From the NCBI RefSeq assembly GCF_044647545.1, contig NZ_CP172818.1: a stretch of 64,000 bases of DNA; one strand, 5' to 3'. Position 1 is the first letter of the stretch. Every line of letters starts with the position of its first letter. The DNA is from Escherichia coli. GTDB taxonomy: Bacteria; Pseudomonadota; Gammaproteobacteria; Enterobacterales; Enterobacteriaceae. The notes beneath the pieces are model-generated. The model saw nothing but the letters and a program-made list of their open reading frames with translations. It searched no databases and was not told the DNA's origin. Shown here one piece after another: positions 3,166 to 20,296 of the stretch. The position numbers and the translations under genes are program-made.

Positions 3166-3648
<483 letters not shown>

Positions 3649-3654
3649 CCGCGC

Positions 3655-3660
3655 ATTATA
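3655..3660 (-). promoter_or_regulatory. Candidate -10 hexamer of the S10 operon promoter
   Basis: Minus strand reads TATAAT followed by a GC-rich discriminator (gcgcggg); no recognisable -35 lies upstream, where the sequence is an anomalous GC-rich tract. Confidence 0.45.
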
Positions 3661-3848
3661 CTGGGGGGGCGGGCCGCGCCGCGCGGGGGCGCTTGTTCGC
3701 CCTCTCTGCACGGCTGGTGTCCGGCAGTTCGGCCCGTCTCTGGTCGGTTTTTCTGGGTGAAAGGTGGCGGCCGCGCGATTTACGCGTGCCCGCCCCCCCC
3801 CCCTTACTCTGGTCAGGTCTTTTGTTCTATCATGGGAGTTTGGGCTAA

Positions 3849-4170
3849 TCGATTCCCCTGATCGGTTTAGCCGATGCGTTATGGGGGGCGATTATTGGTT
3901 ACGGCACATTCGCTGTCATTTACTGGGGGTATCGCATTCTGCGTCATAAAGAAGGATTAGGCTATGGTGATGTGAAGTTTCTCGCCGCCCCCTTGGTGCC
4001 TGGCATACATCCTATCGACTGGTTTTCCTTGCTGCCTTCATTGCTTGCCGAGCCGTAGTTCATTGGTCTGCTCATGAGAGGAAAAGAGTCATTAAAAAAT
4101 CTCCCGCTGCCGTTGTGGGAGCATCTTCTGCGCGAACTGACGGGTTTCGTTGTAGGCTGGGATAGTTATG
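3849..4170 (+). pseudogene. gspO: Decayed 3' remnant of a prepilin peptidase (GspO/PilD family) gene; no start codon, frameshifted
   Basis: Open frame 3849..4058 translates ...LADALWGAIIGYGTFAVIYWGYRILRHKEGLGYGDVKFLAA, containing the conserved GxGDVKxLAA motif; the expected following LGAW is encoded 2 nt out of frame after a C5 run at 3987..3991. Confidence 0.55.
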
Positions 4171-4181
4171 CTGGCAGGCCG

Positions 4182-4658
4182 TTAATCTTTAACTTTTATT
4201 TGTGATTGCAGGTAATTTTGTAGACCGATTTTACCGATGAGATCCAGCTCAGTTTCGAGCCAGTCAATATGACCTTCTTCATCGGCAAGGATCTCGATCA
4301 TCATATCACGGCTAACATAGTCATGAACGCTGTCGGCATACGCGATAGCCTCACGGAGATCCTTAGCGCCTTCCAGTTCTAATCGCAGGTCGGATTGCAG
4401 CATCTCCTCGACATCTTCACCAATCCCCAGTTTGCCTAAATCCTGTAAGTTGGGGATTCCTTCTAAAAACAAAATACGCTCGATATATTTATCAGCGTGT
4501 TTCATCTCATCGATAGATTCATGGTATTCGACGTCATTGAGACGCATCAGGCCCCAGTTTTTAAACATCCGGGCATGGAGAAAATACTGATTGATTGCGA
4601 CAAGCTCATTTCCCAATAGTTTATTGAGATAATTTATGATTTTAACATCACCTTTCAT
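4182..4658 (-). CDS. bfr: Bacterioferritin
   Basis: ORF contains [37 protein letters not shown]...; start set at the internal Met for a 158-aa product. Confidence 0.9.
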
Positions 4659-4729
4659 TTTTAGTCCCTCCGCTTCCACTATTAGAGCGTAGATGGGGCT
4701 AGCGGGATGTCAAAAAATAAGCGTGGGCT

Positions 4730-9113: not shown

Positions 9114-9591
<478 letters not shown>

Positions 9592-13738: not shown

Positions 13739-15544
13739 CTACTCAAATTCATCCCAGCCGTCCAGCTGGCGTCGTTCTTGTTGCATTTCACGCTGGAAAA
13801 TCTCTTCCAGTTCGCGTCGGGCTTCCCTGGCGCGAGAAATTTGTACGGTATCGGCATGCATTGGGATGAGCTCTCGCAACATCCGCATATCCAGGCGACG
13901 AAAATGCAGCTGCGCCCGCTGTGCCTGATGCGGATGCATGCCAAGCGTGACCAGCGTCTTGCGTCCCAGCTCTAACGCACTGGAGAATGTCTCACGAGAA
14001 AACTGCGTCACCCCTGCCTGTAATAACTCATGCGCCTCCACACGTCCGCGCGCTCGCGCAAGAATATGTAAATGCGGAAAGTGCTGCTGGCATATTTCCA
14101 CCAGTTTCATGGTGTCTTCCGGCTCGTTACAGGTAATGACGATAGACTCAGCGGCCTCTGCACCCGCAGAACGTAAAAGATCTACCTGCGTGGCGTCGCC
14201 GTAATAAACTTTGTAGCCATATTTACGCATCAGGTTAACGGCGCTGATATCCCGCTCCAGCACGGTAATGCGCATTTTATTTGCCATCAGCAAACGACCA
14301 ATCACCTGACCAAAACGCCCAAAGCCCACGACAATGACCTGCGGTTTATCATCGTTGACCCATGGTTTTTCGTCTTCTTCTTCCGGTCCGTTAAACTGGC
14401 GGGATAGCCATTTATCTACCAGCTTCATCAGCAGCGGCGTGGTCATCATGGAAAGCGTCACCGTCACCAGCAACAGCGCCATCTGGTCGCCCTGAAATAA
14501 GCGTTGTGAAGAAGCGGTAGAAAAGAGCACAAAGGCAAACTCACCGCCCTGACTCAACACGCCAGCAAACTGCATCCGCTCTGAGCTACGCACGCCATAC
14601 AATCGCGCCAGCAGATACAGCACGAGAATTTTCACCGCCACCAGCACAACCACACTTATCACTACCCACAACAGATGGGTATAAAGCACCCCGAGGTTGA
14701 GTGACATGCCGACAGAGATAAAGAACAAACCGAGCAGCAAGCCTTTGAAGGGATCGATAGCCGTTTCCAGTTCATGGCGATATTCACTTTCCGCCAGTAG
14801 CACACCCGCAATAAACGTACCGAGCGCCATCGACAACCCCAGCGCATCCATAAACAATGCGGAACCCAACACCAGCAGCAGCGTCGCGGCGGTGAACACT
14901 TCCCGCACACCAGAAGCTGCAATAAAACGGAATACCGGACGCAGTAAATAGCGCCCGCCAATCAGCATGCCGACAAACGCCAGCACCTTCATGCCGATCT
15001 TCATCCAGTCGAAATGTTCGTCTGCCGAACCCGCCAACAACGGCACTAACGCCAGTGCCGGGATCACCGCCAGATCCTGAAACAGCAGAACCGAAAAACC
15101 TAGCTGCCCGGATTCGCTGCGATTCATCCCTTTCTCACGCATCAGTTGCAACGCCATTGCGGTTGAGGACATCGCAAGGCCAATACCACCGACCACCGCC
15201 GCCTGCCATGAGAAATGGGTCAGCATCAATAATCCCGCCAGCAACGCCGCGCTTAACAGCACCTGTGCCGCACCTACGCCAAAAATCGAACGCCGCAATT
15301 GCCAAAGCTTGGAGGGATTCAACTCCAGGCCGATGATAAACATCAGGAACACCACGCCGAGTTCCGAAAAGTGGAGGATCTCATCGACGTCGCTAATAAA
15401 ACCCAGCCCCCACGGGCCAATAGCAATCCCTGCCAGCAAATATCCCAACACAGCGCCAATCCCCAGCCGCGATGCCAGCGGCACCGCAGCCACCGCCGCG
15501 AAGAGAAACAGCACTCCTGCGAGTAAAAAATCGGAACCTTCCAT
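13739..15544 (-). CDS. kefB: Glutathione-regulated potassium-efflux system protein KefB
   Basis: 601 aa ORF with N-terminal multi-TM Na/H-exchanger-like domain and C-terminal KTN/Rossmann domain ([11 protein letters not shown]). Confidence 0.9.
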
Positions 15545-16098
15545 CAGCGGCCTCCTGGAGACAGCGGATTTGCCAGCCAGTCACCGTAGGCTCTGGCGTG
15601 GCTCGCCAGCTCCTGTGCGCTTTGCCGTCTCGCCCAGTAAATAATGATGGGACTTAACCAATGCATCCGGCACATGCCCGCCGCCAGTTCAAAGGGGCGC
15701 AGCACATCGCTCATCGGGTAGCGATTCAAGGCGTCATAACGGTAAGCACTTTCCGGCTCGCCGGTGGTAATCACGCTACGCCAGTACTTTCCCGCCAGTT
15801 GGTTTCCTCCCGGCCCGCTGGCAAAACCACGGCTTAATACCCGGTCCAGCCACTCTTTCAGTAGCGCCGGGCAGCTATAGGTATAAAGAGGATGCTGAAA
15901 GACAATCACCTCGTGCTCGCGCAGTAATGCCTGCTCTCGGGGGATATCAATAAAAAAATCGGGATAGTGCGCGTAAAGGTCGTGCACGGTAACATTGCTG
16001 AGCTGCGTAGCCGGTTTAAGCAGTACCCGGTTTGCCACCGAGTCCTGAGATTCCGGATGGGCATACAGCAGCAAAACTTTCGCTGGCTGAGACATCAT
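15544..16098 (-). CDS. kefG: KefB ancillary protein KefG (flavodoxin-like oxidoreductase fold)
   Basis: 184 aa [30 protein letters not shown]...; 1-nt overlap with kefB. Confidence 0.9.
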
Positions 16099-16225
16099 CC
16101 CCCTCCCGGTATGGTTTTTGTGTATAGTCGCTGTTTTGGGCTACCATTGCGCCCGGTGCGGCAGCTCGCCCATACATTACATTATCATAATGATAAGTTA
16201 ACATAGTCTGAACATACGGCGCCTT

Positions 16226-18139
16226 ATGATTGTTTTCTCCTCGTTACAAATTCGTCGCGGCGTGCGCGTCCTGCTGGATAATGCCACCGCCACCATCAAC
16301 CCCGGGCAGAAAGTCGGCCTGGTGGGTAAAAACGGCTGTGGTAAATCTACCCTGCTGGCATTGCTGAAAAATGAAATCAGCGCCGACGGCGGCAGCTACA
16401 CCTTTCCGGGAAGCTGGCAACTGGCGTGGGTGAATCAGGAAACACCAGCGCTACCGCAAGCGGCGCTGGAATATGTCATTGACGGCGACCGTGAATATCG
16501 TCAACTGGAAGCGCAGCTACACGACGCCAACGAACGTAACGACGGGCACGCCATCGCCACTATTCATGGCAAGCTGGATGCTATTGACGCATGGAGTATT
16601 CGCTCCCGTGCCGCCAGCCTGCTGCACGGCCTCGGTTTCAGCAATGAACAACTGGAGCGCCCGGTAAGTGATTTCTCCGGTGGCTGGCGTATGCGTCTTA
16701 ACCTTGCCCAGGCGCTGATTTGCCGTTCAGACTTGCTGCTGCTCGACGAACCGACTAACCACCTCGATCTCGATGCCGTTATCTGGCTGGAAAAATGGCT
16801 GAAGAGCTATCAGGGCACGCTGATCCTGATCTCTCACGACCGCGACTTCCTCGATCCGATCGTTGATAAAATTATTCATATCGAACAACAAAGCATGTTC
16901 GAGTACACCGGCAACTACAGTTCGTTTGAAGTACAGCGCGCCACCCGTTTGGCGCAGCAACAAGCGATGTATGAAAGCCAGCAGGAACGCGTGGCGCATC
17001 TGCAAAGTTATATCGACCGTTTCCGTGCCAAAGCCACCAAAGCGAAGCAGGCCCAGAGCCGTATTAAGATGCTGGAGCGTATGGAGCTGATTGCCCCGGC
17101 GCACGTCGACAACCCGTTCCGCTTTAGCTTCCGCGCGCCGGAAAGCCTGCCTAATCCGTTATTAAAGATGGAAAAAGTCAGCGCAGGCTATGGTGATCGC
17201 ATTATTCTCGACTCGATTAAACTGAATCTGGTCCCCGGCTCGCGCATTGGTCTGCTAGGCCGCAACGGCGCGGGTAAATCGACATTAATCAAACTGTTAG
17301 CCGGTGAACTTGCGCCAGTCAGCGGTGAAATTGGTCTGGCGAAAGGGATCAAGCTCGGCTACTTCGCCCAGCATCAACTTGAATACCTGCGCGCCGACGA
17401 ATCGCCTATTCAACATCTGGCACGTTTAGCGCCGCAGGAGCTGGAACAAAAACTGCGTGATTACCTCGGCGGCTTTGGTTTCCAGGGCGATAAAGTAACC
17501 GAAGAAACGCGCCGCTTTTCCGGTGGGGAAAAAGCCCGCCTGGTGCTGGCATTAATCGTCTGGCAGCGTCCGAATCTGCTGCTGCTCGACGAACCGACTA
17601 ACCACCTTGACCTCGACATGCGTCAGGCACTCACTGAAGCATTAATCGAGTTCGAAGGCGCGCTGGTTGTCGTTTCGCACGACCGTCATTTGCTGCGTTC
17701 CACCACTGACGATCTCTACCTGGTTCACGATCGTAAAGTCGAACCGTTCGACGGCGATCTGGAAGATTATCAACAGTGGTTGAGCGACGTACAAAAGCAG
17801 GAAAACCAGGCCGACGAAGCGCCAAAAGAGAACGCGAACAGCGCCCAGGCACGTAAAGATCAGAAACGTCGGGAAGCGGAGCTGCGTGCGCAAACCCAGC
17901 CACTGCGTAAAGAGATTGCCCGTCTGGAAAAAGAGATGGAGAAGCTGAACGCGCAACTGGCGCAGGCGGAAGAGAAACTCGGCGACAGCGAACTGTACGA
18001 TCAAAGCCGTAAAGCGGAGTTGACCGCCTGCCTGCAACAGCAAGCCAGCGCCAAATCCGGCCTGGAAGAGTGCGAAATGGCGTGGCTGGAAGCCCAGGAG
18101 CAGCTTGAGCAGATGCTGCTGGAAGGCCAAAGCAACTGA
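16226..18139 (+). CDS. yheS: ABC-F family ATPase YheS (two ABC domains, no transmembrane domain)
   Basis: 637 aa ORF with two Walker A motifs (GKNGCGKST, GRNGAGKST) and two LSGGE-type signatures. Confidence 0.9.
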   Translation: MIVFSSLQIRRGVRVLLDNATATINPGQKVGLVGKNGCGKSTLLALLKNEISADGGSYTFPGSWQLAWVNQETPALPQAALEYVIDGDREYRQLEAQLHDANERNDGHAIATIHGKLDAIDAWSIRSRAASLLHGLGFSNEQLERPVSDFSGGWRMRLNLAQALICRSDLLLLDEPTNHLDLDAVIWLEKWLKSYQGTLILISHDRDFLDPIVDKIIHIEQQSMFEYTGNYSSFEVQRATRLAQQQAMYESQQERVAHLQSYIDRFRAKATKAKQAQSRIKMLERMELIAPAHVDNPFRFSFRAPESLPNPLLKMEKVSAGYGDRIILDSIKLNLVPGSRIGLLGRNGAGKSTLIKLLAGELAPVSGEIGLAKGIKLGYFAQHQLEYLRADESPIQHLARLAPQELEQKLRDYLGGFGFQGDKVTEETRRFSGGEKARLVLALIVWQRPNLLLLDEPTNHLDLDMRQALTEALIEFEGALVVVSHDRHLLRSTTDDLYLVHDRKVEPFDGDLEDYQQWLSDVQKQENQADEAPKENANSAQARKDQKRREAELRAQTQPLRKEIARLEKEMEKLNAQLAQAEEKLGDSELYDQSRKAELTACLQQQASAKSGLEECEMAWLEAQEQLEQMLLEGQSN

Positions 18140-19161
18140 TGGCGCAGATAACAACGACCGATGCCAATGAATTTAGCAGCAGTGCTGAATTCTCCCCTAT
18201 GCGCGGCTTTAGCAATTGTCATCTACAAACCATGCTGCCGCGTCTGTTCCGTCGCAAGGTGAAATTCACCCCGTACTGGCAGCGGCTGGAGTTGCCCGAC
18301 GGCGATTTTGTCGATCTCGCGTGGAGTGAAGATCCTGCACAGGCGCGGCATAAACCGCGTTTAGTCGTGTTTCACGGGCTCGAAGGCAGTCTCAATAGCC
18401 CTTACGCCCACGGTCTGGTTGAGGCGGCGCAAAAGCGTGGCTGGCTGGGCGTGGTGATGCATTTTCGCGGATGCAGCGGTGAACCAAACCGTATGAACCG
18501 CATTTACCATTCGGGCGAAACCGAAGACGCTAGCTGGTTTTTACGCTGGCTGCAACGCGAATTTGGTCATGCGCCAACGGCTGCCGTCGGCTATTCGCTC
18601 GGCGGTAATATGCTGGCCTGTTTGCTGGCAAAAGAAGGTACTGATCTCCCGATTGATGCGGCGGTGATTGTCTCTGCGCCGTTTATGCTGGAGGCCTGTA
18701 GTTACCATATGGAAAAGGGCTTTTCCCGCATTTATCAGCGTTACTTGCTGAACCTGTTAAAAGCCAATGCCGCGCGCAAGCTGGCAGCCTACCCCGGAAC
18801 ACTGCCGATTAATCTCGCGCAGTTAAAATCGGTACGTCGCATCCGTGAATTTGACGATCTCATCACCGCCAGAATTCACGGCTACGCTGACGCTATCGAC
18901 TATTATCGTCAGTGTAGCGCCATGCCGATGCTGAACCAGATCGCCAAACCGACGCTGATTATTCACGCCAAAGACGATCCGTTTATGGATCATCAGGTGA
19001 TCCCGAAACCGGAAAGTCTCCCCCCGCAGGTGGAGTATCAACTGACTGAACATGGCGGTCATGTTGGCTTTATTGGCGGTACGTTACTTCATCCGCAAAT
19101 GTGGCTGGAGTCACGCATTCCTGACTGGTTAACAACGTATCTGGAGGCGAAATCATGTTGA
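18139..19161 (+). CDS. yheT: Alpha/beta-hydrolase family protein YheT
   Basis: 340 aa ORF containing the GYSLGG nucleophile-elbow motif. Confidence 0.85.
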
Positions 19162-19373
19162 TTCCGTGGCAAGACCTCTCCCCCGAAACGCTGGAAAATT
19201 TAATTGAAAGCTTTGTGTTACGTGAAGGCACCGATTATGGTGAACATGAGCGTACACTTGAACAGAAAGTCGCCGACGTCAAACGCCAGCTACAGTGCGG
19301 AGAAGCGGTGCTGGTATGGTCGGAGCTGCACGAAACGGTCAATATCATGCCGCGCAGTCAGTTTCGCGAATAA
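19155..19373 (+). CDS. yheU: UPF0270 family protein YheU
   Basis: 72 aa [32 protein letters not shown]...; overlaps yheT end. Confidence 0.8.
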
Positions 19374-19426
19374 CCTGCAACCGTCGGCGGACGAGATAAT
19401 AATGATAGCTAAGTCATGGAGTTACT

Positions 19427-20296
19427 ATGTCTGCCAAACATCCGGTCATTGCGGTAACAGGATCCAGCGGCGCGGGGACCACCACCACCAGCCTCGCGTT
19501 TCGTAAAATATTCGCGCAGTTAAATCTGCATGCAGCCGAGGTGGAAGGTGACAGTTTTCACCGTTACACCCGCCCGGAAATGGACATGGCGATCCGCAAA
19601 GCGCGCGACGCCGGGCGGCATATCAGCTACTTCGGCCCCGAAGCGAACGACTTCGGCCTGCTGGAACAAACCTTCATTGAATACGGTCAGAGCGGCAAAG
19701 GGAAATCTCGCAAATATCTGCATACCTACGACGAAGCCGTACCGTGGAATCAGGTACCGGGGACATTCACCCCATGGCAACCTTTACCGGAACCCACTGA
19801 TGTACTGTTTTATGAAGGTTTACACGGCGGCGTCGTCACGCCACAGCATAACGTTGCGCAGCATGTGGATTTACTGGTCGGCGTGGTGCCTATCGTTAAC
19901 CTTGAGTGGATTCAAAAATTGATCCGCGACACCAGCGAGCGCGGGCACTCACGAGAAGCAGTGATGGACTCAGTAGTGCGCTCAATGGAAGACTATATCA
20001 ACTACATCACACCGCAGTTTTCCCGCACCCATCTTAACTTCCAGCGCGTTCCCACCGTCGACACCTCAAACCCGTTCGCGGCAAAAGGTATCCCGTCGCT
20101 GGATGAAAGCTTTGTGGTGATCCATTTTCGTAATCTGGAAGGGATCGATTTCCCCTGGCTGCTGGCGATGTTGCAGGGCTCATTCATTTCCCACATCAAT
20201 ACGTTAGTGGTGCCCGGCGGCAAAATGGGTCTGGCAATGGAATTAATTATGCTGCCGCTGGTGCAACGATTGATGGAAGGAAAGAAAATCGAGTAA
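19427..20296 (+). CDS. prkB: Phosphoribulokinase homologue
   Basis: 289 aa ORF MSAKHPVIAVTGSSGAGTTTTSLAF... (P-loop). Confidence 0.85.
   Translation: MSAKHPVIAVTGSSGAGTTTTSLAFRKIFAQLNLHAAEVEGDSFHRYTRPEMDMAIRKARDAGRHISYFGPEANDFGLLEQTFIEYGQSGKGKSRKYLHTYDEAVPWNQVPGTFTPWQPLPEPTDVLFYEGLHGGVVTPQHNVAQHVDLLVGVVPIVNLEWIQKLIRDTSERGHSREAVMDSVVRSMEDYINYITPQFSRTHLNFQRVPTVDTSNPFAAKGIPSLDESFVVIHFRNLEGIDFPWLLAMLQGSFISHINTLVVPGGKMGLAMELIMLPLVQRLMEGKKIE

Follow-up and report, generated by a model that had tools for sequence, protein, structure and literature searches.

The yheS locus and its gene content

The window analysed here, a stretch of 64,000 nucleotides from Escherichia coli (NZ_CP172818.1), contains an open reading frame (ORF) for 637 amino acids that starts with ATG at 16226 and stops with TGA at 18137-18139 on the plus strand, as the preliminary description had placed it. 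The features of the region are summarized in Table 1. The protein scored 1406.7 bits with the YheS equivalog model NF007921 (PRK10636) of NCBIfam, for which the cut-off is 917, and residues 1-636 were aligned with positions 1-637 of the 638 positions of the profile. YheS from E. coli K-12 (UniProt P63389; PDB 9vvi chain W and 9nlh chain H) has the same 637 amino acids in length, the same domain order and motifs and the same genomic context. By phmmer, the differences between the ORF and the deposited chains 9vvi_W and 9nlh_H were the engineered substitutions E175Q and E456Q and one natural substitution (A529 here, T529 in the deposited K-12 chain), which falls where the C-terminal extension begins, a part modelled with low confidence. 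At the DNA level, the gene is 100% identical to that of several E. coli chromosomes, and a match covering at least 80% of its length was found in 5425 of 5426 complete E. coli genomes, with identities from 97.6 to 100% among the sampled hits in these genomes. The annotation of the ORF as yheS and its presence in 5425 of the 5426 genomes mark it as a genuine gene rather than a chance reading frame. Neither a frameshift nor an internal stop was seen in the window sequence of yheS, and no evidence contradicting its identity arose among the results of the present analysis.

Table 1. Features of yheS and its surroundings in the window (Strand: +, plus)
Feature	Position	Strand	Basis
Region between the divergent genes kefG and yheS (127 bp), yheS 5' region	16099..16225	.	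Near absence of Shine-Dalgarno
yheS CDS, 637 aa + TGA stop	16226..18139	+	ORF list; NCBIfam NF007921; PDB 9vvi_W match (residues 2-637); RefSeq annotation yheS
NBD1, residues 1-229	16226..16912	+	Motif scan; Pfam ABC_tran; boundaries from PMC13249984
NBD1 Walker A GKNGCGKST, residues 34-42	16325-16351	+	Motif scan
Arm subdomain, residues 90-121	16493-16588	+	Boundaries from PMC13249984
NBD1 FSGG signature, residue 150	16673-16684	+	Motif scan
NBD1 Walker B LLLLDE, residue 170, catalytic E175	16733-16750	+	Motif scan
Interdomain linker PtIM, helix-turn-helix towards peptidyl transferase centre	16913..17161	+	Pfam ABC_tran_Xtn; boundaries from PMC13249984
NBD2, residues 313-526	17162..17803	+	Motif scan; Pfam ABC_tran at 328-459
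NBD2 Walker A GRNGAGKST, residues 345-353	17258-17284	+	Motif scan
NBD2 FSGG signature, residue 431	17516-17527	+	Motif scan
NBD2 Walker B LLLLDE, residue 451, catalytic E456	17576-17593	+	Motif scan
C-terminal extension, residues 527-637 (111 aa)	17804..18136	+	AF2 model; Pfam ABC_tran_CTD; PMC11162784
yheT, alpha/beta-hydrolase, second gene of operon	18139..19161	+	Pfam Abhydrolase_1 E=2e-41; RefSeq
yheU (UPF0270, 72 aa), third gene of operon	19155..19373	+	ORF coordinates; Pfam UPF0270 E=1e-35; RefSeq

The str operon had been said to lie about 7 kb away on the opposite strand, which is borne out by rpsL (9114-9488, minus strand), 6738 bp from the start of yheS. The accompanying claim that yheS has no operon link is correct with respect to the str operon, but yheS heads an operon of its own, yheS-yheT-yheU. 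The TGA of yheS and the ATG of yheT overlap by 1 nt at the junction TGATG, and yheU overlaps yheT by 7 nt. Co-transcription of the three genes has been stated, and yheT and yheU often adjoin yheS in other organisms (bioRxiv 10.1101/2023.06.11.543863). The synteny of kefB-kefG with yheS-yheT-yheU-prkB is conserved, and no gene for an ABC permease was found among the annotated neighbours (kefG/kefB, yheT, yheU and prkB).

The best duplex of the yheS 5' region with the anti-Shine-Dalgarno sequence has an energy of -1.7 kcal/mol, compared with -5.5 to -9.3 kcal/mol for yheT, yheU and prkB; this agrees with a low basal expression of yheS. We also considered a regulatory leader upstream of yheS, comparable to the attenuators of antibiotic-resistance (ARE) ABC-F genes, and rejected it: no Rfam match was obtained in 15900-19600 even at an E value of 1, Shine-Dalgarno support was lacking for every small ORF within the 127 bp between kefG and yheS, and promoter-like and terminator-like sites were no commoner than in shuffled sequence. 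The single promoter-like site of the intergenic region is on the minus strand and faces kefG, and one further site, on the plus strand, is located inside yheT.

Domain architecture of YheS

Both nucleotide-binding domains (NBDs) are complete, as had been claimed, with Walker A, signature, Walker B and H-switch motifs in each and no ATP-binding motif lost. The motif scan placed the SHD motifs of the H-switch at residues 203 and 484, and ABC_tran of Pfam matched the protein in two stretches (E=1.6e-50). The linker reported to join the two NBDs was recognized as ABC_tran_Xtn (PF12848), the ABC-F linker, at residues 217-299 with 102.1 bits (cut-off 25.9; E=1.7e-29), and the PtIM residues reported as functional or as contacts, including F234, R241, Y249, F266, K269, R279 and F298/300/302, are all present. 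When we checked the sequence against the structural and mutational papers, 49 of 49 published residues in contact with ATP, ribosome or tRNA or within the linker core were retained; the functional residues kept comprise H114, D118 and W123 of the Arm, Q275, Q277 and K281 of the PtIM together with those named above, and the catalytic E175 and E456.

The highest Kyte-Doolittle hydropathy in a 19-residue window was 1.22, which is below the value of about 1.6 commonly expected of a membrane helix, and no membrane domain was found by Pfam; YheS therefore has no transmembrane segment, and on this point the hydropathy scan and Pfam upheld the preliminary description. The protein shows the features that define an ABC-F factor, namely tandem NBDs, an ABC-F linker and no transmembrane domain fused to it or encoded alongside. 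The family models, the near-identity to ribosome-bound structures and the literature all support the earlier view that YheS is an ABC-F ATPase, soluble and intact, with a function on the ribosome and not in transport.

The C-terminal extension had been described as long, coiled and rich in Lys and Glu. The extension exists, but Glu, Gln, Ala and Leu predominate in its composition, with E at 17%, Q at 14%, A at 14%, L at 12% and K at only 8.5% in the last 118 residues of the protein. Its 111 residues exceed the C-terminal domain of at least 80 residues after NBD2 used as the criterion for YheS (PMC11162784), and the match to ABC_tran_CTD at residues 560-622 was just sub-threshold (30 bits, cut-off 32). 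A single-sequence AF2 model predicted an antiparallel hairpin of two helices (512-587 and 593-636, pLDDT 81). Sequence comparison of the extension with the PDB returned YheS itself and otherwise only insignificant coiled-coil matches (E>=0.78), with no solved C-terminal domain of any ABC-F paralog among them. A Foldseek search of the PDB with the hairpin model matched only antiparallel coiled coils of a generic kind, in HlyD, the arms of Smc and the tower of LSD1; no match attained an E value of 0.001 or better, and they therefore provide no functional lead. The extension was not visible in either of the two cryo-EM studies of YheS, one of which is PMC13249984, and its deletion abolished the activity of YheS (PMC11162784).

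Relationship to other ABC-F proteins

YheS did not reach the cut-offs of the NCBIfam models for its E. coli paralogs, with 337.4 bits for EttA (cut-off 599), 360.6 bits for Uup (900) and 363.8 bits for the YbiT-type model PRK15064 (762). EttA (energy-dependent translational throttle A) resembles YheS in having two NBDs and a PtIM, in its location in the E site and in touching the L1 stalk as well as the P-site tRNA. However, its PtIM is short, it is without the long C-terminal coiled coil, and it stabilises the P-site tRNA for the first peptide bond, whereas YheS displaces the P-site tRNA and favours complexes with elongator tRNA. Uup is the only other ABC-F protein of E. coli with a C-terminal domain of about 100 amino acids, which is likewise invisible in cryo-EM, and ABC_tran_CTD is common to the two proteins, with YheS just below the threshold. 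Uup has a genetic interaction with EF-P and relieves stalling at polyproline, in contrast to YheS, which releases SecM arrest.

After YheS itself, the best-scoring solved homologs were yeast Arb1 (6r84, E=9.5e-97) and ABCF1 (5zxd, E=1.1e-93), eukaryotic proteins whose N- and C-terminal extensions differ from those of YheS. In the cell, ABCF1 (ABC50) serves in initiation, and Arb1 in 60S biogenesis or quality control. In a published phylogeny, the eukaryotic ABC-Fs have YheS as their sister group on the bacterial side (PMC6723617).

Putative function of YheS in the release of translation arrest

We consider, with a probability of roughly 0.93, that the ORF represents the chromosomal yheS gene of E. 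coli, intact and of full length, for a housekeeping ABC-F translation factor, one of four in E. coli, that would release arrest from the ribosomal E site. This finding is correct but already known, since YheS has been characterised both biochemically and structurally. In the PURE system, YheS released SecM-arrested ribosomes, and the release required the linker helix, the C-terminal extension and the ATPase activity, whereas TnaC, SpeFL, ApdP and an artificial arrest peptide were minimally affected (NAR 2024, PMC11162784). SecM is the only demonstrated client of YheS. A 2.8 Å structure of ribosome-bound YheS, together with mutagenesis, gave a mechanism of release; the structure was made with an ATPase-dead mutant, and the molecular-dynamics support was called qualitative by its authors (Nat Commun 2026, PMC13249984). 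Independent cryo-EM and smFRET studies (including bioRxiv 10.1101/2023.06.11.543863) showed that YheS binds the E site and prefers elongator-tRNA complexes, so that the ribosome association for which co-sedimentation had been proposed is already in print.

The steps of this mechanism were shown by others with a protein that is identical except for A529T, and we extend them to the present copy by inference; its binding to the E site likewise probably follows from its identity, A529T apart, to the 9vvi/9nlh protein. With ATP bound, the two NBDs would close and YheS would occupy an empty E site, with the Arm holding the L1 stalk. The helix-turn-helix of the PtIM would be inserted towards the peptidyl transferase centre (PTC), with 23S rRNA helices 74, 75, 80 and 93 as its likely anchors, and the acceptor stem of the P-site tRNA would be shifted by 5-12 Å and the nascent chain drawn back by about 2 Å. 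Retraction of the nascent chain is expected to loosen the contacts in the exit tunnel that stabilise the arrest, and hydrolysis of ATP would then open the dimer, after which YheS would leave and the formation of peptide bonds could resume.

The preliminary description had regarded the role of YheS as poorly defined. This is outdated as far as the SecM-release activity and its structural mechanism are concerned (PMC11162784, PMC13249984), but it still holds for the physiological role, which is loosely defined because the knockout has almost no phenotype. ABC-F factors of the YheS type show that ribosomes need accessory ATPases to pass particular nascent-peptide sequences, and the antibiotic-resistance ABC-Fs use the same machinery. 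For the window itself, yheS matters little: it is a core gene, intact and at its customary location, and a description at atomic resolution exists already.

Alternative interpretations of YheS

The product names in RefSeq ('ABC transporter ATP-binding protein') and NCBIfam, together with weak matches below the cut-off to ZnuC, CydC and other transporter ATPases, would fit an ATP-binding subunit of a membrane ABC transporter. This interpretation is refuted in practice, and we give it almost no weight, since the NBDs are fused in a single chain through the ABC-F specific linker PF12848, YheS has no transmembrane segment, the neighbourhood has no gene for a permease or a binding protein, the structure was solved on the ribosomal E site, and all transporter ATPase models of NCBIfam scored far under their cut-offs. 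It is very unlikely, if less so than a transport function, that YheS is an ARE ABC-F shielding the ribosome from drugs that bind the PTC or the tunnel. The generic NCBIfam model for 'ribosomal protection-like ABC-F family protein' was passed (429.7, cut-off 380), and an overexpression screen listed yheS with a 3-fold higher streptomycin MIC (PMC12924614), but the models for individual ARE types (Msr, Vga, Lsa, Sal, OptrA, CplR and the producer type) all remained far under their cut-offs, among them Sal (321.7/725), OptrA (310.7/1450), Msr (263.8/680), Vga (260.3/725) and Lsa (217/750). Streptomycin binds at the decoding site of the 30S subunit and not at the PTC, and a direct mechanism of the ARE type is therefore unlikely for YheS. 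The ARE ABC-Fs (VmlR, MsrE, LsaA, VgaA, PoxtA and OptrA) have the same architecture, the same E-site mode and the same displacement of the P-site tRNA by the linker as YheS; however, their function has been ascribed to PtIMs of a length sufficient to extend into the PTC or tunnel and dislodge drugs, on ribosomes without a nascent chain, whereas YheS acts on ribosomes with a nascent chain in the tunnel, and its action was classed as distinct (PMC13249984). The comparison of the linker with those of resistance ABC-Fs that had been suggested as a check is contained in that study, and the suggested susceptibility profiling of a deletion mutant has also been published, with sensitivity to erythromycin and other inhibitors minimally altered.

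Against the importance of arrest release in the cell, deletion of yheS left SecM arrest in vivo unchanged under the conditions tested, single knockouts showed almost no change in growth, proteome or drug sensitivity, and the ΔyheS strain restarted from stationary phase without a loss of fitness (bioRxiv 10.1101/2023.06.11.543863). The physiological relevance of the SecM-release activity is weak. YheS may relieve elongation stalls broadly and with low specificity, in which case SecM would be an incidental client in vitro and the real substrates would appear only under particular stresses. The authors of the YheS study themselves suggested a 'broad and shallow rescue'; they noted that SecM is younger than YheS, that SecM release is raised by some linker mutations, which implies that YheS is not optimised for SecM, and that yheS expression is generally repressed. 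The almost missing Shine-Dalgarno sequence is consistent with low basal expression. The minimal effect on the other arrest peptides (PMC11162784) and the lack of any alternative client identified to date speak against this reading, which we regard as possible, with a chance of about one in three. Much less probable is a main role in 50S assembly or cold adaptation instead of the rescue of arrested elongation. Overexpression of YheS caused a dramatic and specific growth defect at 18 °C in a strain lacking BipA, a GTPase of 50S assembly (PMC6723617), but this interaction is overexpression toxicity and not suppression, the partner of YheS is the mature 70S ribosome with a P-site tRNA, tRNA-free 70S being bound weakly (>19 µM), and no assembly defect of ΔyheS was reported in PMC6723617, in bioRxiv 10.1101/2023.06.11.543863 or in the knockout study.

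Possible cooperation with YheT and YheU, and an internal repeat

The overlaps of 1 nt and 7 nt between the genes and their frequent adjacency in other organisms are also what would support a three-part system of YheS, YheT and YheU for the handling of stalled ribosomes, an idea that we rate as improbable, marginally more so than the assembly role. In such a system, YheS could draw the P-site tRNA out of the PTC while an esterase acts on ester-linked species such as peptidyl-tRNA, and SecM release would then be a side activity of YheS. Purified YheS alone frees SecM arrest (PMC11162784), and YheT and YheU are therefore dispensable for SecM release.

In the BLAST comparison, a second place per genome appeared for yheS, which corresponds to a 40-nt repeat that the gene's two Walker B/D-loop blocks share. 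A paralog or a mobile repeat as its source was ruled out, the repeat being internal to yheS. Intragenic gene conversion was also set aside as its origin, since codon identity was only mildly enriched: 10 of 14 positions in the repeat block had identical codons, compared with 23 of 53 at other sites with the same amino acid in NBD1 and NBD2.

Identity and conservation of the yheS gene

The ORF in the window is an intact, core and already well-known E. coli gene, yheS, and this copy shows nothing unusual. The start codon, stop codon and length were the same as in the preliminary description, whose observation is confirmed and whose interpretation is supported with the small corrections described below. 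The protein gave a score of 1406.7 bits over its full length with the NCBIfam equivalog NF007921 (YheS; cut-off 917), and scored far below the cut-offs of the NCBIfam models of the EttA, Uup and YbiT type, which represent its paralogs in E. coli. The best matches among solved structures were 9vvi chain W ('Probable ATP-binding protein YheS') and 9nlh chain H ('YheS'), and residue-by-residue comparison with 9vvi showed only the two engineered E-to-Q substitutions and A529 (T in the deposited chain) as differences. Codon 529 (window 17810-17812), the sole natural amino-acid difference, encodes Ala here and Thr in the K-12-derived PDB chain; it falls where the C-terminal extension begins, in a part modelled with low confidence, and the difference is probably neutral. 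Of the residues named in structural or mutational papers (ATP, L1-stalk, rRNA, tRNA, uS7 and linker-core residues), 49 were checked and all were present in the window copy.

Several E. coli chromosomes contain the 4-kb stretch around yheS with 100% identity. The gene was matched over at least 80% of its length in 5425 of the 5426 complete E. coli genomes, with DNA identity of 97.6-100% in a sample of matches spread down the ranking.

Coordinates of the features in the window
Feature	Position	Strand	Remarks
rpsL	9114-9488	-	coordinates carried over from the best-matching record
kefG, mechanical ORF	15544-16098	-	184 aa (MMSQ...), one codon longer at its 5' end than annotated (183 aa)
yheS ORF	16226-18139	+	ATG at 16226, TGA at 18137-18139, 637 aa
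Direct repeat within yheS, first copy	16734-16773		40 nt, 38/40 nt identical to the second copy
Direct repeat within yheS, second copy	17577-17616		843 nt from the first copy

Domain architecture and the C-terminal extension

A motif scan found both Walker A motifs quoted earlier (GKNGCGKST, residues 34-42, and GRNGAGKST, residues 345-353), together with two FSGG signature motifs (150 and 431), two LLLLDE Walker B motifs (170 and 451), whose catalytic glutamates are E175 and E456, and two SHD H-switches (203 and 484). Pfam detected two ABC_tran domains and the ABC-F linker domain ABC_tran_Xtn at residues 217-299 (102 bits), and ABC_tran_CTD at residues 560-622 was just below the threshold (30 bits, cut-off 32). 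Since the peak 19-residue Kyte-Doolittle mean was 1.22 and no membrane domain was found by Pfam, YheS has no transmembrane segment; neither such segments nor the loss of an ATP-binding motif, either of which would have spoken against the preliminary description, was seen.

The C-terminus had been called Lys/Glu-rich, but the last 118 residues are rich in Glu, Gln, Ala and Leu instead (E 17%, Q 14%, A 14%, L 12%, K 8.5%). This extension is essential (PMC11162784), yet invisible in both cryo-EM studies. A sequence search with the extension alone gave no match beyond YheS, and a Foldseek search of the PDB with its model returned no significant match, the hits being generic coiled-coil hairpins only. 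The single-sequence AF2 model (pLDDT 81) has helices at 512-587 and 593-636 with a turn at 588-592, and the extension is thus predicted to be an antiparallel helical hairpin, in agreement with its earlier description as coiled and with a figure of predicted coiled coils published by Murina et al. (PMC6723617).

Ribosomal activity and physiological role

The mechanism of YheS has already been described at atomic resolution. It was published for a protein identical to the window YheS except for A529T, and would by sequence apply to this copy. The structure of YheS-EQ2 (the E175Q and E456Q double mutant) on the 70S ribosome arrested by the SecM arrest peptide was solved at 2.8 Å, with YheS in the E site, its Arm (residues 90-121) holding uL1 and H76 of the L1 stalk, and the interdomain linker, PtIM (residues 230-312), anchored on 23S rRNA helices 74, 75, 80 and 93 (Iso et al., Nat Commun 2026, PMC13249984). 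With YheS bound, the acceptor stem of the P-tRNA shifts by 5-12 Å and A76 by about 2 Å, and most of the SecM chain is no longer visible as density in the tunnel (PMC13249984). In the model of Iso et al. (PMC13249984), YheS would act in four steps: recognition, insertion, disruption and dissociation driven by ATP hydrolysis. Cryo-EM and smFRET from another group also showed that YheS binds the E site, moves the P-tRNA out of catalytic geometry and binds complexes with an elongator tRNA far more tightly than initiation complexes (bioRxiv 10.1101/2023.06.11.543863 and a related study). YheS releases SecM arrest in the PURE system, and this activity is lost when either the linker helix or the extension at the C-terminus is removed, or with E456Q, whereas EQ2 instead stabilises the arrested peptidyl-tRNA, and the TnaC, SpeFL and ApdP arrest peptides are barely affected by YheS (Chadani et al., PMC11162784).

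The RefSeq and NCBIfam product name, 'ABC transporter ATP-binding protein', implies a transporter ATPase, but the domain architecture, the structures solved on the ribosome and the missing permease partner exclude this reading. The name, which applies to yheS in the window and at 12727-14640 of L001 (the compared stretch of the best-matching genome record), gives a wrong impression of a soluble ABC-F protein that binds the ribosome. An antibiotic-resistance (ARE) type of ABC-F is also unlikely: YheS was far under the cut-off of every specific NCBIfam model of this class, a published comparison sets its action apart from that of long-PtIM AREs (PMC13249984), and the knockout has a minimal drug phenotype. 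One overexpression screen lists yheS with a streptomycin MIC raised 3-fold (PMC12924614).

YheS had been described as still poorly defined, which no longer holds for the published biochemical activity and structure but does hold for the physiology, in which knockouts are nearly silent. Single knockouts have almost no growth, proteome or drug-sensitivity phenotype, SecM arrest in vivo is unchanged in ΔyheS under the conditions tested, and cells lacking yheS restart from stationary phase with no loss of fitness (bioRxiv 10.1101/2023.06.11.543863). The sole basis for a role in ribosome assembly is the toxicity of overexpressed YheS, specific to ΔbipA at 18 °C (Murina et al., PMC6723617). A live alternative for the physiological role, favoured as a possibility by the original authors themselves, is that YheS is a broad rescuer under specific stresses, for which SecM is an incidental client; YheS homologs are more widely distributed than SecM and are expected to be the older of the two. 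This reading would alter the client of YheS, not the mechanism.

Genomic context, internal repeat and 5' region

The gene order in the best-matching record is tufA-fusA-rpsG-rpsL (-), tusBCD, yheO, fkpA, slyX, slyD, yheV, kefB-kefG (-), yheS-yheT-yheU-prkB (+), yhfA and crp. The yheS start lies 6738 bp from rpsL, consistent with the earlier estimate of about 7 kb from the str operon on the opposite strand. The absence of an operon link is correct for the str operon but incomplete, as yheS overlaps yheT in yheS-yheT-yheU. The yheS TGA and yheT ATG share one nucleotide (TGATG, 18137-18141), yheT and yheU overlap by 7 nt (19155-19161), and these overlaps suggest translational coupling of yheS to yheT, an alpha/beta-hydrolase gene (Pfam Abhydrolase_1, E=2e-41), and to yheU, encoding a 72-aa UPF0270 protein. 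The three genes are a co-transcribed operon, often adjacent in other organisms too (bioRxiv 10.1101/2023.06.11.543863). The overlap at 15544 likewise suggests coupling of kefG and kefB, an ordinary arrangement.

In both nucleotide-binding domains (NBDs), the direct repeat codes for the same Walker B/D-loop block, LLLLDEPTNHLDLD, and it accounts for the two places per genome reported by BLAST for yheS. Codon identity between NBD1 and NBD2 was only mildly enriched (10/14 in the block versus 23/53 elsewhere), which does not argue strongly for gene conversion; amino-acid conservation and codon bias are enough to account for the repeat.

No Rfam family was matched in 15900-19600, no convincing leader ORF was found 5' of yheS, and promoter-like and terminator-like matches around the gene occurred only at background frequency. 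Virtually no Shine-Dalgarno sequence precedes the ATG (16206-16225; best anti-SD duplex -1.7 kcal/mol, versus -5.5 for yheT, -9.3 for yheU and -5.9 for prkB), consistent with the published generally low or repressed expression.

When the window was compared with the best-matching genome at one constant offset, 1141 mismatches were counted. The 40 listed, which are the first, all begin at the extreme left of the compared stretch (about window 3500), pointing to an indel or a divergent segment at about window 3500-4700 (L001 1-1200). Between the str operon and yheS, the two sequences line up.
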